This document shows positions 3,316 through 56,443 of a stretch of DNA of 64,000 nt, piece by piece. Where the stretch lies: contig OZ024742.1 in NCBI GenBank assembly GCA_964016885.1, forward strand, positions 233,616,001 to 233,680,000, in the 5' to 3' direction. Made by a program: the position numbers and the translations under genes. Within the stretch, counting starts at the first letter, position 1. Every line of letters begins with the position of its first letter. Source of the stretch: Eledone cirrhosa (Eukaryota). The notes below the pieces were generated by a model. That model had not been told where the DNA came from, did no database searches, and saw only the letters and a program-made list of their open reading frames with translations.

Positions 3316-3530
3316 TAGGAACGAGTTGGACCCCGACGGCTGAACTCAAGCTGTTTCGACGGCTAATTCTGGACTAAAAAAATGTTTTTTAGTCCAGAAT
3401 CAGCCGTCGAAACGGCTTGAGCTCAGCCGTCGGGGTCCTACTCGTTCCTATTACCCACTCTCCTACCCTAAGTATTGAGTACTTTGGTGCGTTATGGTCC
3501 ATCTGGTTCCTTACCACATTTCCTTCGTTA
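3316..3530 (+). mobile_element. (TA)n-flanked fold-back element, family B (hairpin 3316-3451 plus tail; 3' half of a hammerhead)
   Basis: Inverted arms of about 67 bp containing GAAA cggct tgagctc agccg TC gggg. Other copies at about 4820-4958 (-), 14164-14345 (-) and 31103-31325 (+). Confidence 0.8.
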
Positions 3531-3659
3531 TATATATATATATATATATATTTTTTTTTCTTGACGATCGACTTTCGTCAAATCGGACCGAGGGAACAAT
3601 GTTTCTGTTGGTCTTTCCAATTGCTAATACTATCTATCGGTCGCAACTCCAGGTAGAAG

Positions 3660-3779
3660 AAGCAACGTGAAATAAAGTATCTTGCTCAAGGACATAACGC
3701 ATCGCCTGGTCCAGGAATCGAACTCACAACCTTACGATTGCGAATCCAATTCTCTAACCACTCAGCCACACGCCTTCAC
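3660..3779 (-). mobile_element. Second tRNA-derived SINE family (CORE-like); copies 34448-34650 (+) and 37845-37998 (-)
   Basis: Minus strand: gtggctgagtggttag (A box), gagttcgattcc (B box), then ccttgagcaagatact. Confidence 0.75.
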
Positions 3780-3899
3780 CTATATATATTCGTTTTCGAG
3801 TACGGTCACTACTTTATGTCCATGTAGGAGAACCCCTACCGATGCGCTGAACGAGTGTGACTTTTTAGTCCAGCCAGCGACTTGAAAACTCTGGTACAA

Positions 3900-4380
3900 A
3901 CATTACACCTGTGACAATTATTGACACATAGTGCTGGGCCCTTGGTACCATGTGATGACAAGTGTAGAGAGATCTCCAGATATAAAGCAATGTCTGTGCC
4001 GTGAAGCATTTAGGGTGAGCAAAGGCACTGCACAAAGCCAGTCCCACTCTCTTAACCAAGATGATATTTACCAAAAAGAAGAACAAGTCAACATCATTGG
4101 ATACCATCAGGGTTGCAGGTGTTATATCAGAGTTTTCCTTCTCCTAGAATTCTGCCTTGACAAAGGCTAAAGGGTCATCTCTCCCGGTGATTTTGGATGG
4201 CCATTGACTCTTAAGAGCTCCTTTGCCCTTTGACAGGTTTTGTTTTTAGTCCTGCAGGATGTCCAAAGTCACCCTCCTCACCAAGAAACCTTGGTGGGGT
4301 TGCCAGTTTAGTCGCCAACGACCCGACCATGAGACAGGTTGTACTGGGATACATGTTACCAGTAGCATCATCTGGTGACC
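3900..4380 (-). mobile_element. Dispersed repeat resembling an RTE-clade LINE 5' region; related pieces 36055-36315 (+), 38135-38290 (+), 29415-29458
   Basis: Shared ctaggagaagg...actctgatataa and tggtgaggaggg motifs. The RTE assignment is from memory of similar 5' UTRs. Confidence 0.5.
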
Positions 4381-50900: not shown

Positions 50901-53900
50901 TTTACATTACTCTCTATATACACTATTTACATTACTCTCTAGATATACTATTTACATTACTCTCTATATATACTATTTACATTACTCTCTATATATACTA
51001 TTTACATTACTCTCTATATACACTATTTACATTACTCCTTAGATATACTATTTACATTACTCTCTATATACACTATTTACATTACTCTCTATATATACTA
51101 TTTACATTACTCTCTATATATACTATTTACATTACTCTATATATATACTATTTACATTACTCTCTATATACACTATTTACATTACTCTCTATATATACTA
51201 TTTACATTACTCTCTATATACACTATTTACATTACTCTCTAGATATACTATTTACATTACTCTCTATATACACTATTTACATTACTCTCTATATATACTA
51301 TTTACATTACTCTCTATATACACTATTTACATTACTATCTATATATACTATTTACATTACTCTCTATATGCACTATTTACATTACTCTCTAGATATACTA
51401 TTTATATTACTCTCTATATATACTATTTACATTACTCTCTATATATACTATTTACATTACTCTCTATATACACTATTTACATTACTCTCTATATATACTA
51501 TTTACATTACTCTCTATATACACTATTTACATTACTCTCTATATACACTATTTACATTACTCTCTATATACACTATTTACATTACTCTCTAGATATACTA
51601 TTTACATTACTCTCTATATACACTATTTACATTGCTTTCTATATACACTATTTACATTACTCTCTATATACACTATTTACATTACTCTCTATATACACTA
51701 TTTACATTACTCTCTATATACACTATTTACATTACTCTCTATATATACTATTTACATTACTCTCTATATACACTATTTACATTACTCTCTATATATACTA
51801 TTTACATTACTCTCTATATACACTATTTACATTACTCTCTATATACACTATTTACATTACTCTCTAGATATACTATTTACATTACTCTCTATATACACTA
51901 TTTACATTACTCTCTATATACACTATTTACATTACTCTCTATATATACTATTTACATTACTCTCTATATACACTATTTACATTACTCTCTATATACACTA
52001 TTTACATTACTCTCTATATACACTATTTACATTACTCTCTATATACACTATTTACATTACTCTCTATATATACTATTTACATTACTCTCTATATATACTA
52101 TTTACATTACTCTCTATATATACTATTTACATTACTCTCTATATATACTATTTATATTACTCTCTAGATATACTATTTACATTACTCTCTAGATATACTA
52201 TTTACATTACTCTCTATATACACTATTTACATTACTCTCTATATATACGATTTACATTACTCTCTATATACACTATTTACATTACTCTCTAGATATACTA
52301 TTTACATTACTCTCTATATACACTATTTACATTACTCTCTATATATACTATTTACATTACTCTCTATATATACTATTTACATTACTCTCTATATATACTA
52401 TTTACATTACTCTCTATATACACTAGTTACATTACTCTCTATATACACTATTTACATTACTCTCTATATACACTATTTACATTACTCTCTATATACACTA
52501 TTTACATTACTCTCTATATATACTATTTACATTACTCTCTATATATACTATTGACATTACTCTCTATATACACTATTTACATTACTCTCTATATATACTA
52601 TTTACATTACTCTCTAGATATACTATTTACATTACTCTCTATATACACTATTTACATTACTCTCTATATATACTATTTACATTACTCTCTATATATACTA
52701 TTTACATTACTCTCTATATATACTATTTACATTACTCTCTATATACACTATTTACATTACTCTCTATATACACTATTTACATTACTCTCTAGATATACTA
52801 TTTACATTACTCTCTATATACACTATTTACATTACTCTCTATATATACTATTTACATTACTCTCTATATATACTATTTACATTACTCTCTATATATACTA
52901 TTTACATTATTCTCTATATACACTATTTACATTACTCTCTATATATACTATTTACATTACTCTCTATATACATTATTTACATTACTCTCTATATACTATT
53001 TACATTACTCTCTAGATATACTATTTACATTACTCTCTATATACACTATTTACATTACTCTCTATATACACTATTTACATTACTCTCTATATAAACTATT
53101 TACATTACTCTCTATATATACTATTTACATTACTCTCTATATATACTATTTACATTACTCTCTATATACACTATTTACATTACTCTCTAGATATACTATT
53201 TACATTACTCTCTATATACACTATTTTCATTACTCTCTATATACACTATTTACATTACTCTCTATATATACTATTTACATTACTCTCTATATACACTATT
53301 TACATTACTCTCTATATACACTATTTACATTACTCTCTATATACACTATTTACATTACTCTCTATATACACTATTTACATTACACTCTATATATACTGTT
53401 TACATTACTCTCTATATATACTATTTACATTACTCTCTATATACACTATTTACATTACTCTCTATATACACTATTTACATTACTCTCTATATATACTATT
53501 TACATTACTCTCTATATACACTATTTACATTACTCTCTATATACACTATTTACATTACTCTCTATATATACTATTTACATTACTCTCTATATACACTATT
53601 TACATTACTCTCTATATATACTATTTACATTACTCTCTATATACACTATTTACATTACTCTCTATATACACTATTTACATTACTCTCTATATATACTATT
53701 TACATTACTCTCTATATACACTATTTACATTACTCTCTATATACACTATTTACATTACTCTCTATATATACTATTTACATTACTCTCTATATATACTATT
53801 TACATTACTCTCTATATACACTATTTACATTACTCTCTATATACACTATTTACATTACTCTCTATATATACTATTTCCATTACTCTCTATATACACTATT

Positions 53901-55375
53901 TACATTACTCTCTATATACACTATTTACATTACTCTCTATATACACTATTTACATTACTCTCTATATATACTATTTACATTACTCTCTATATATACTATT
54001 TACATTCCTCTCTATATATACTATTTACATTACTCTCTATATACACTATTTACATTACTCTCTAGATATACTATTTACTTCACTCTCTAGATACACTATT
54101 TACATTACTCTCTATATACACTATTTACATTACTCTCTAGATATACTATCTACATTACTCTCTATATACACTATTTACATTACGCTCTATATACACTATT
54201 TACATTACTCTCTAGATATACTATTTACATTACTCTCTATATACACTATTTACATTACTCTCTATATATACTATTGACATTACTCTCTATATATACTATT
54301 TACATTACTCTCTATATATACTATTTACATTACTCTCTATATATACTATTTACATTACTCTCTATATACACTATTTACATTACTCTCTATATACACTATT
54401 TACATTACTCTCTATATATACTATTTATATTACGCTCTATATACACTATTTACATTACTCTCTAGATATACTATTTACATTACTCTCTATATACACTATT
54501 TACATTACTCTCTATATATACTATTGACATTACTCTCTATATATACTATTTACATTACTCTCTATATATACTATTTACATTACTCTCTATATATACTATT
54601 TACATTACTCTCTATATATACTATTTACATTACGCTCTATATACACTATTTACATTACTCTCTATATACACTATTTACATTACTCTCTATATACACTATT
54701 TACATTACTCTCGATATATACTATTTATATTACGCTCTATATACACTATTTACATTACTCTCTATATATACTATTTACATTACTCTCTATATACACTATT
54801 TACATTACTCTCTATATATACTATTTACATTACTCTCTATATACACTATTTACATTACTCTCTATATACACTATTTACATTACTCTCTATATATACTATT
54901 TACATTACTCTCTATATATACTATTTACATTACTCTCTATATATACTATTTACATTACTCTCTAGATATACTATTTACATTACTCTCTAGATATACTATT
55001 TACATTACTCTCTATATACACTATTTACATTACTCTCTAGATATACTATTTACATTACTCTCTATATACACTATTTACATTACTCTCTATATACACTATT
55101 TACATTACTCTCTATATATACTATTTACATTACTCTCTATATATACTATTTACATTACTCTCTATATACACTATTTACATTACTCTCTAGATATACTATT
55201 TACATTACTCTCTATATACACTATTTACATTACTCTCTAGATATACTATTTACATTACTCTCTATATACACTATTTACATTACTCTCTATATACACTATT
55301 TACATTACTCTCTAGATATACTATTTACATTACTCTCTATATACACTATTTACATTACTCTCTAGATATACTACT
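44967..55375 (+). repeat. 25-bp satellite, about 415 copies (YACTATTTACATTACTCTCTATATA)
   Basis: Directly visible 25-bp period over about 10.4 kb with recurrent diagnostic variants. Confidence 0.99.
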
Positions 55376-55811
55376 ATATTTTCACGGTAAAGACTTTATC
55401 TCACATAATTATCTCACATAATATTGAATCTATGAAATGTTGATATTATTTTTTTTTTGAGAAGAACATCTTAACATCAATATGAGTGACTGGTTGCAGC
55501 CAGTTTGAACAGAAAGAAGTGAGAGAATTCTGGCCGGATATGGCCGGTTTAAATACTTACGGGTTAAATCATTTCACTTTAATTTCAAAAAGTCGGGGAA
55601 TAATGGTACGTTCAGTTTTGAAATAATATTTCTTTATATCTACATCCCCTACATAAAACTGTAAAGGTTTATATCTAAACCTGGATTAGGCCCTATATAT
55701 ATATATATATATATATATATATATATATATATATATATATATATATATGTGTGTGTGTGTGTGTGCGTGTGTGCGCGTGTATGTATATATATATATATAT
55801 ATATATATATA

Positions 55812-56443
55812 TATGTATGTATGTATACGTACATACATATATGTATACAGACGTACAGTAGTATGTATATATATATACATACATGCACACATATATATAT
55901 GCACGTATCGGTTTACCGAACATTTATTATAATGCTCGGTTTGTTTGTAAACAAACAAACAGCCCGAATTACGCCGTACAGTGTTTAGGCAACCACGTCA
56001 CCTTTTTGTTCAACGCTGACACAGGAACGATGTACTACTTTCAAGCTTATTAGCTATCGTCAGAATCGTATACCTTCCTGCCAGATAGTTGAACGTCTGA
56101 AAGTATATACTTTCCTTATGCATATTAACGGCTGAGCAGCCTAATTTGCATATTGAGTGTGTTTAGTCGGCAGGAAGGTATACGATGCTGACGATAGCTA
56201 ATAAGCTAGAAACTAGTACATCGTTCCTGTGTCAGTGTTGAACAAAAAGGTGACGTGGTTTCCTAAACACTGTACGGCGTAATTCGGGCTGTTTGTTTGT
56301 TTACAAACAAACAAACCGAGCATTATAATAAATGTTCGGTAAACCGATACGTGCATATATGTATGTGTGCATGTATGTATATATATATACATACTACTGT
56401 ACGTCTGTATACATATATGTATGTACGTATACATACATACATA
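55812..56443. repeat. Palindromic hammerhead element, same family as 23448-23861; tail continues to about 56504
   Basis: Arms about 55812-56082 and 56169-56443. Confidence 0.9.
56182..56224 (+). ncRNA. Minimal type I hammerhead ribozyme motif
   Basis: acgatg CTGACGA tagc taataa gcta GAAA ctag TA / catcgt. Stem I 6 bp, stem II 4 bp, palindromic ctag stem III, GUA triplet. Confidence 0.8.

Follow-up and report, generated by a model that had tools for sequence, protein, structure and literature searches.

Tail-bearing head-to-head fold-backs at (TA)n in Eledone cirrhosa: likely miniature insertions of Penelope-like elements

A stretch of 64,000 nucleotides of the Eledone cirrhosa genome (assembly GCA_964016885.1, contig OZ024742.1, positions 233,616,001 to 233,680,000, hereafter the window) contains many short fold-backs, pairs of inverted arms lying between (TA)n runs. 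Judging from their sequence, these are likely to be insertions of the 3′-terminal part of Penelope-like elements (PLEs), made of a pseudo-long terminal repeat (pLTR) and a tail, and devoid of open reading frame (ORF). A PLE origin in one form or another seems to us highly probable. We further propose, with a probability of roughly 0.6, that the elements are PLE-derived and that both strands of a cut (TA)n primed synthesis at two start sites on the RNA, the two cDNAs being then joined head to head. The fold-backs do not behave as miniature inverted-repeat transposable elements (MITEs), and an artefactual origin is unlikely.

The window is AT-rich (22-39% GC), with abundant (TA)n and (CA)n. Fold-backs were detected by self-BLAST of the window, combined with centre-by-centre alignment of the arms. 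All 18 coordinates listed in a first-pass annotation, made from the letters alone, were recovered as fold-backs, with arms of 33-272 nt, a complementarity of 87-100% and spacers of 0-212 nt. Three others had been overlooked (22869-23105, 23117-23220 and 24259-24302). Together, the 21 structures occupy 6.9 kb, which is 10.8% of the window and 39% of its dense part between 12 and 24.5 kb; fractions of 18 given below refer to the listed set. Over 2003 aligned columns, arms of the same structure differ by 36 transitions and 32 transversions (68 substitutions) and by 9 indel events, and 6 of the 18 have at most one base difference. The fold-back at 8161 is an old copy whose arms do not adjoin TA, and that at 10141 is atypical (Table 1). 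The single-arm copies announced at 2151, 4820 and 19379 do exist and keep their tail, and such copies occur in families B, C, D and H. Those at 4820 and 19379 have inverted repeats of 8-10 bp near their 5′ ends. At 24106-24201, one TA run separates two facing family E tail ends, a sign that insertions accumulate in the same microsatellites.

The structures had been described as (TA)n, arm, turn, inverted arm and (TA)n. TA is indeed present on both sides, but the outer ends are asymmetric, with a tail on one side only in 16 of the 18. One arm ends at most 12 nt from a run of at least (TA)4 in 16 of 18 cases, and such a run is found within 200 nt beyond the opposite arm in all 18. When structures were placed at random, a TA-adjacent arm was obtained for 1.2 of 18 over the whole window (maximum 5 in 600 trials), and for 2.3 of 18 (maximum 8) when placement was limited to 12-24.5 kb. 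The far arm extends as a tail of 21-172 nt before reaching its TA run; the tail of 23448 is longer and, by homology to 55812, reaches approximately 24157. In 11 of 17 fold-backs (10141, having no tail, was excluded), the point where the tail-less arm gives way to TA corresponds, in the continuing long arm, to a word of alternating TA at least 3 nt long, for 1.39 expected (P ~1e-9). The tail end keeps the same position inside families B, C and D, as does the short-arm end inside family B. In the true terminal inverted repeat (TIR) elements of the window (29468-30332 and 37507-37825), both ends adjoin TA and no tail is present. A tail at one end only, although mostly longer than the published 30-40 nt, and insertion into an AT-rich or microsatellite target, with TA adjacency far above random placement, are both as expected for PLEs.

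Besides the one-sided tail and the fixed short-arm end, the first-pass annotation had overlooked a hairpin, ACUC-stem-loop-stem-(U)UGAGU, which recurs in the tails of otherwise dissimilar families. The exact pattern gave 11 matches, compared to 0.87 in shuffled sequence, every one of them 41-96 nt upstream of a TA run; allowing one mismatch made it unselective (42 matches, 23 when shuffled), so that only the exact pattern was used. Once 11 copies were aligned, 90.9% of 77 cells were paired, far over slid controls, and all three inner pairs carried compensatory changes, on both sides; three rows are knowingly mis-registered by a one-base bulge, and several were retrieved with a pattern that demands pairing, which biases this statistic toward structure. 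Among the 17 tails defined by asymmetry, the hairpin is clear in 8 (3316, 12510, 14243, 16471, 16851, 18121, 20673 and 31103) and weak in 2 (8161 and 13072). In 5 of 6 families, the distance from the end of the short arm to the start of the hairpin is 6-17 nt (P ~1e-5, for an interval chosen post hoc). This shared hairpin is a candidate signal for binding of the reverse transcriptase (RT), or for initiation. The possibility that the tail is the start of an ORF was dropped, as no ATG was seen by eye in the family B open frame.

Ribozymes reading outward, toward (TA)n, had also been reported. A home-made descriptor of the minimal hammerhead gave 10 matches, compared to 1.95 in block shuffles. 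When each of the 18 structures was scanned under relaxed rules, 8 showed a core reading outward and 2 a core reading inward, the latter in each case beside an outward one. Adding 12510, 13072 and 16471 brings the predicted outward-reading minimal cores to 11 of 18, the other 7 lacking a full core. The core of 13072 bears a G at the cleavage site. In 16471 the turn cuts the core, and the family H consensus, built from 113 loose ends in public runs, has a full one. Type I topology was found in the folds of 18121, 13072, 55812 and 19869, with weak z-scores. Several cores have a palindromic helix III, and the U3-A8 core variant is present, both as described for PLE ribozymes in PMC4209133. Another short family, with two TA-flanked single copies (21149-21266 and 28873-28997), has a CTGATGA-like start and no GAAA box.

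In all 18 fold-backs, the two arms form a head-to-head, inverted pair of 5′-truncated copies, their polarity being given by the 11 outward cores and by the hairpin and tail. This agrees with the anatomy described for PLEs in PMC3846280 and PMC8557442, and the link to PLEs made earlier stands. As had been noticed, the turn point varies between copies of the same family, in families B and E; it lies at the core edge (13564, 16471 and 12510), in stem II (18121) or far upstream (19869, family E). The idea that all turns fall within hammerhead stem II was rejected, given those at the core edge and far upstream. Copy-private alleles common to both arms were found at 6 positions in family B and 12 columns in family E, where differences between arms number 7 and 12, respectively. 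Both arms were therefore either made from a single template sequence or homogenised. Together with the variable turns, this bears out the earlier suggestion that the inversion is made anew at each insertion.

Seven spacers of at least 10 nt could be assigned to one arm, on the basis of homology or of hammerhead structure. Six of them (14243, 12510, 18121, 23448, 55812 and 22869) belong to the tail-less arm, and the remaining one, 16851, to the tailed arm. This count leaves aside 13072, 20673, 19869 (restart duplication) and 10141 (atypical), as well as the spacers shorter than 10 nt. A snap-back copy must nest in the first cDNA; staggered arms therefore need two RNA-templated syntheses, barring later deletions in the centre. 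In the fold-back at 12510-12641 the arms differ at 8 of 60 sites, 6 of them transversions, and the short arm is identical to the single copy 19379 at 6 of these 8; this is suggestive of an insertion from two templates, without reaching significance. As for direct pLTRs in partial tandem, the 34-nt restart duplication in 19869 is the only candidate.

Of the words of 13478-14400, a share of 0.69-0.75 is present in each of three runs of a single sample (X1-X3), which may be the source; no RNA run is among those listed as sharing them. Region 30900-31670 was compared, at 82% likeness, with runs X1, X4 and X5 (organism B) and with raw reads X21, from another sample. Family B is high-copy: 24,984 X1 contigs and 30,936 X21 reads match this region as a whole. 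Its loose ends run into TA at two places, past 31245 (104 X1 contigs and 7 X4 contigs) and past the end of the tail (387 X1 contigs and 9096 X21 reads). Among the joints, 15 are listed, a further 100 lying outside the listing, and these 15 with their inserts give at least 8 different joints at the centre. Family B thus has two fixed 3′ ends and many turns, although these joints do not tell which arm bears the tail. In X1 and X21 alike, its depth is about nine times lower immediately 5′ of 31186. A natural long hairpin at the centre of this family was considered; no upstream loose end was seen among the ends listed, 981 others lying outside the listing. A strand-change joint of family H is present in X1 and X4 contigs and in 184 X21 raw reads (9 starts), and the joint 31143>31191 is present in both X1 and X21 (7 reads, 1 start). 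The families are found at low depth in X5 (72 records), in which no orthologous or empty site was seen. In all four runs, joints going back at 30968-31012 are of high depth and contain 31-34 inserted letters, as if a variant of the family H segment were repeated in tandem.

The following series of events would account for these structures. A GIY-YIG/RT protein encoded by a PLE elsewhere would bind an RNA ending with hammerhead, hairpin and tail, and would cut (TA)n on both strands, as suggested by the flanks and by the in vitro behaviour of another PLE. One strand would prime at the tail end, a site that is fixed per family. The second would prime upstream, on a TA-like word lying immediately 5′ to the hairpin, where the short-arm end and its microhomology are observed. 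Both cDNAs would then halt early, often at the hammerhead, and would be joined with little or no homology, giving the turns seen. Priming at the tail end alone would leave the single-arm copies. A bolder extension, which we put forward only tentatively, is that many unrelated PLE lineages share a hairpin setting the upstream RT start, and that an RT dimer primes both (TA)n strands on one RNA sequence, at its tail end and immediately 5′ to the hairpin, and so mass-produces miniature perfect palindromes, even from a short interspersed nuclear element (SINE).

Several observations weigh against the proposal that PLE RNA was primed from both strands. Membership in PLEs has to be inferred, since neither RT nor GIY-YIG domain was found by Pfam in the 108 of 149 complexity-filtered frames (at least 55 aa) of the window that were covered; matches were to a homeodomain, two weak mariner-type helix-turn-helix domains, a weak zinc finger and two at chance level. 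An Rfam scan of the window at gathering thresholds gave no ribozyme match, a full core was not found in 3316, 14243 and 31103 (all three of family B), nor in 8161, 10141, 14863 and 20673, and isolated folds of hammerhead or tail were mostly non-significant (z −2.1 to +1.1). Only some 8-10 of the 18 tails contain the hairpin; the tails, mostly 39-172 nt, exceed the published length, and 10141 and the SINE fold-back 23117 break the tail rule. Short-arm ends fall at three sites across the three family E copies. Priming of the anole PLE needed no homology (PMC11167929), and microhomology is common here. The 6:1 count in favour of staggering is small (two-sided binomial, 0.125 compared to 50:50), spacer assignment is partly interpretive, and staggering could be imitated if palindrome centres later underwent asymmetric deletion. 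Finally, the runs examined gave neither a read or contig crossing the 31103 locus nor an empty site.

Of the two mechanisms offered by the first-pass annotation, priming by both strands fits better; most arms are staggered rather than nested, which speaks against pure cDNA snap-back. A broader version of the second, possible but rather doubtful in our view, is that the second arm of a PLE insertion was made by fold-back, either through snap-back of the cDNA or through an antisense template that primed itself, the latter having been proposed for rotifer Penelope (PMC3846280), with joining at the first TA microhomology and later deletions of the centre. Arms sharing copy-private alleles are what a direct copy would give, annealing to a TA overhang would require the microhomology seen at the short arm, and the variable short-arm end of family E, the zero or tiny spacers of 13708, 8161, 12176 and 16471, the nested 16851, and 10141, which resembles a fold-back extending into flanking DNA, all go in the same direction. 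Yet in 6 of the 7 assignable cases the spacer is part of the tail-less arm and could have no template in the tailed cDNA, two similar deletions would be needed for the nearly identical staggered centres of the two long family E copies, and short-arm ends cluster just 5′ of the conserved hairpin across families. Host repair, for instance a snap-back of the polymerase-theta type at TA-hairpin breaks, might duplicate any retrocopy beside (TA)n with no need for PLE enzymes, as the TA-flanked fold-backs of a SINE 3′ end (23117-23220) and of a non-element segment (10141) would allow. This is the least probable of the explanations considered: duplication after insertion should nest in the original arm and would not halt beside the same RNA hairpin in unrelated families, and most of the many SINE copies of the window are not folded back.

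That the source copies were themselves palindromic, either MITE-like non-autonomous elements or inherited PLE fold-backs, which later lost their centres and kept their arms alike by gene conversion, is improbable. Long palindromes do tend to lose their centres, the ninefold depth drop in family B looks like a fixed 5′ boundary, and true TIR elements are present in the window. These, however, adjoin TA with both ends and are tail-less, and the first-pass claim that the fold-backs are not MITEs with fixed TIRs holds against such symmetric controls, given the one-sided tails, variable turns and single-arm copies. The differing short-arm ends in family E also speak against a palindromic source, the strand-polar hammerhead and hairpin suggest an RNA intermediate, and no transposase was found to have these ends. 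More improbable still are fold-back chimeras arising during assembly, amplification or library preparation. They would be consistent with the six nearly identical arm pairs, with the 31103 locus being spanned by no record, and with the fact that the best-matching runs, X1-X3, may come from the source sample. Against them stand the predominance of substitutions over indels between arms, family-specific tails, microhomologies and hairpin positions that chimeras would not be expected to have, and the recurrence of the family H joint in X1, X4 and X21 and of 31143>31191 in X1 and X21.

The architecture itself is already published. Inverted pLTRs of endonuclease-bearing (EN+) PLEs (Penelope/Poseidon, Neptune, Nematis and Hydra; PMC8557442 Fig. 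2, PMC3846280) show the same head-to-head 5′-truncated copy, one-sided tail, junction palindromes and target, either AT-rich DNA or a microsatellite, and their repeat bears a hammerhead, to which the cores predicted here in 11 of 18 would correspond. PMC8557442 describes the inverted 5′-truncated copy, the 30-40 bp tail at one end and a (TA)n bias, calling the mechanism undefined, and PMC3846280 the palindromes at head-to-head junctions, with antisense self-priming proposed. The present structures differ from EN+ PLEs in having no ORF, both arms within 33-272 nt, and a density of 21 in 64 kb. With PAc, a Poseidon of the green anole, they would share nicking and extension of both strands, two RT start sites bounding the tail, a start near a stem-loop and an AT-rich target, a dimer being predicted in that work (PMC11167929); PAc differs by its priming without homology, and its hairpin is reported as AC-rich. 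Naiad elements (PMC8557442) have the (TA)n preference, inverted copies and tail, together with an N-terminal endonuclease, but lack canonical hammerheads, whereas cores are predicted here in 11 of 18 and in most families; family B, without full core, could differ in this respect. Seven short probes from the window gave no meaningful match in the supplement of PMC8557442, where line wraps could hide matches.

The predicted cores resemble the minimal hammerheads described in PLEs and in non-LTR retrozymes (PMC4209133; bioRxiv 10.64898/2026.07.22.740005) by their minimal type I form, the U3-A8 variant and a helix III that is palindromic, and in Schistosoma hammerhead pairs are found on opposite strands, 100-700 bp apart (PMC4209133). 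Retrozymes are arranged as head-to-tail tandems (bioRxiv 10.64898/2026.07.22.740005), while here head-to-head pairs or single arms are found, and no retrozyme-type tandem with hammerheads was present among the direct repeats of the window's self-BLAST. Penelope and hammerheads are known to occur in a squid (PMC6962438). MITEs and Tc1/mariner derivatives are likewise short and non-coding, with inverted repeats and TA flanks, but their TIRs are symmetric with both ends at the target, in contrast with the one-sided tail, variable turns and single-arm forms seen here. In L1 twin priming, two target strands prime on one RNA, leading to inversion of non-overlapping segments; in the present case, both arms duplicate the same segment.

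What is new here is the ORF-less miniature form at high density, the hairpin common to several families and the staggered arms. No miniature PLE palindromes, hairpin of this kind or PLE twin priming were found in the searchable literature, outside which lie most subscription papers and Repbase. PMC8557442 calls the origin of PLE inverted repeats and tails open, and the in vitro work of PMC11167929 answered it in part. In a short ORF-less fold-back, the two start sites and the two stop sites are recorded within fewer than 300 bases, so that staggered and nested copies, once counted genome-wide, can tell dual priming from snap-back. In annotation, such elements would be mistaken for MITEs or microRNA hairpins. 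Palindromic repeats have been tied to heavy editing (PMC5625713), and nearly perfect palindromes at this density would be ready double-stranded RNA substrates, if transcribed. Should the tentative idea of a shared signal and an RT dimer be true, the junctions would be a natural record settling how PLE inverted repeats form, and the elements a major source of double-stranded RNA where transcribed.

Table 1. Fold-backs and TA-flanked single copies of the window.
Feature	Position	Strand	Description
Family B fold-back	3318..3528	+	arms 3318-3381 / 3385-3448; 80-nt tail 3449-3528 with shared hairpin
Old fold-back 8161	7999..8513	-	arms 8161-8303 / 8304-8466, 91%; no hammerhead core; left tail probable, ACTC 8 nt beyond arm end
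Atypical fold-back 10141	10141..10542	.	TA run within each arm; tail, core and hairpin not found
Family G fold-back	12171..12294	+	34-nt arms; 49-nt tail contains U3-A8 type core
Family D fold-back	12443..12647	-	arms 12510-12569 / 12582-12641; 67-nt left tail with hairpin; core at 12575, in spacer belonging to tail-less arm
Fold-back 13072	12994..13403	-	arms ~130 nt; hammerhead-like fold in both; left tail ~78 nt
Fold-back 13564	13478..13696	-	63-nt arms; turn at 5′ edge of core; 90-nt left tail
Family G fold-back 13708	13715..14121	+	184-nt arms, 1 mismatch; spacer 0; 39-nt tail; U3-A8 core in both arms
Family B fold-back 14243	14167..14345	-	identical 42-nt arms; 79-nt left tail with hairpin; 15-nt spacer, belongs to tail-less arm
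Fold-back 14863	14866..14999	+	33-nt arms; 62-nt tail; CTGATGA without matching GAAA
Family H fold-back 16471	16376..16568	-	identical 45-nt arms; turn in CUGAUGA box; 100-nt left tail with hairpin
Fold-back 16851	16773..17261	-	arms 152/139 nt; 83-nt left tail with hairpin; 115-nt spacer, probably of tailed arm (nested case)
Fold-back 18121	18123..18324	+	arms 41-43 nt; 72-nt right tail, variant hairpin; 46-nt spacer with stem II and core of tail-less arm's hammerhead
Family C fold-back 19869	19813..20434	-	arms ~264 nt, full minimal hammerhead in each; 60-nt left tail; central 34-nt restart duplication
Fold-back 20673	20504..21087	-	186-nt arms; 172-nt left tail, long-loop hairpin; core not found
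Family E fold-back, not in first list	22869..23105	-	left arm tailed; ~13-nt spacer, of tail-less arm
Family E fold-back 23448	23452..24157	+	154-nt arms with hammerhead; 98-nt spacer, of tail-less arm; long right tail, broken by expanded TA run
Family B fold-back 31103	31105..31322	+	66-nt arms; 81-nt right tail; hairpin 31251-31274
Family E fold-back 55812	55815..56504	+	arms ~270 nt with hammerhead; 86-nt spacer, of tail-less arm; 64-nt tail
Family C single arm	2153..2453	-	tail retained; core at 2395; TA on both flanks
Family B single arm, diverged	4819..4957	-	hairpin; TA on both flanks
Family D single arm	19369..19538	-	hairpin present
TA-flanked single segment	12660..12851	-	shared hairpin 76 nt from TA run
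TA-flanked single segment	30449..31084	+	ends as family H tail; hairpin 31010-31029
TA-flanked single arm	31334..31674	-	minimal hammerhead at 31440; high-copy in public runs
TA-flanked single arm	34013..34272	+	minimal hammerhead 34086; shared hairpin 34190-34209

Two of the fold-backs are made of other sequences. One, at 23117-23220, is a TA-flanked pair, head to head, of the 3′ end of a SINE that is tRNA-like and abundant, and both arms end at the natural SINE end; it may have arisen by trans-mobilisation or by a host fold-back route. The arms of 10141-10542 appear to contain host sequence, and this structure sits between older direct repeats (10031-10108 and 10741-10819). Copies of a SINE-like family were found at 14394-14568, 22752-22856, 25323-25504, 32297-33306, 57161-57312, 59441-59625 and 60667-60803, some of them in close inverted pairs; words resembling A and B boxes were noted by eye. 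Remnants of Tc1/mariner type lie at 29468-30332, 37507-37825 and 11546-11962, the first two with symmetric TIRs in TA. A fragment at 18907-19347 (-) gave no Pfam match and, by motif, resembles the RT 3′ end of a long interspersed nuclear element of CR1/L2 type. The window also contains an AT-rich satellite of 25-nt period, approximately 10.4 kb long (44966-55370), and self-BLAST revealed tandem arrays of ~93-nt units at 61400-62047 and of ~20-nt units at 25700-26120. No hexapeptide exon was found in the window, and a homeobox exon follows an AG acceptor at 63200-63697 (+), with PDX1 (Xlox/ParaHox) as best match (E 3.7e-32).

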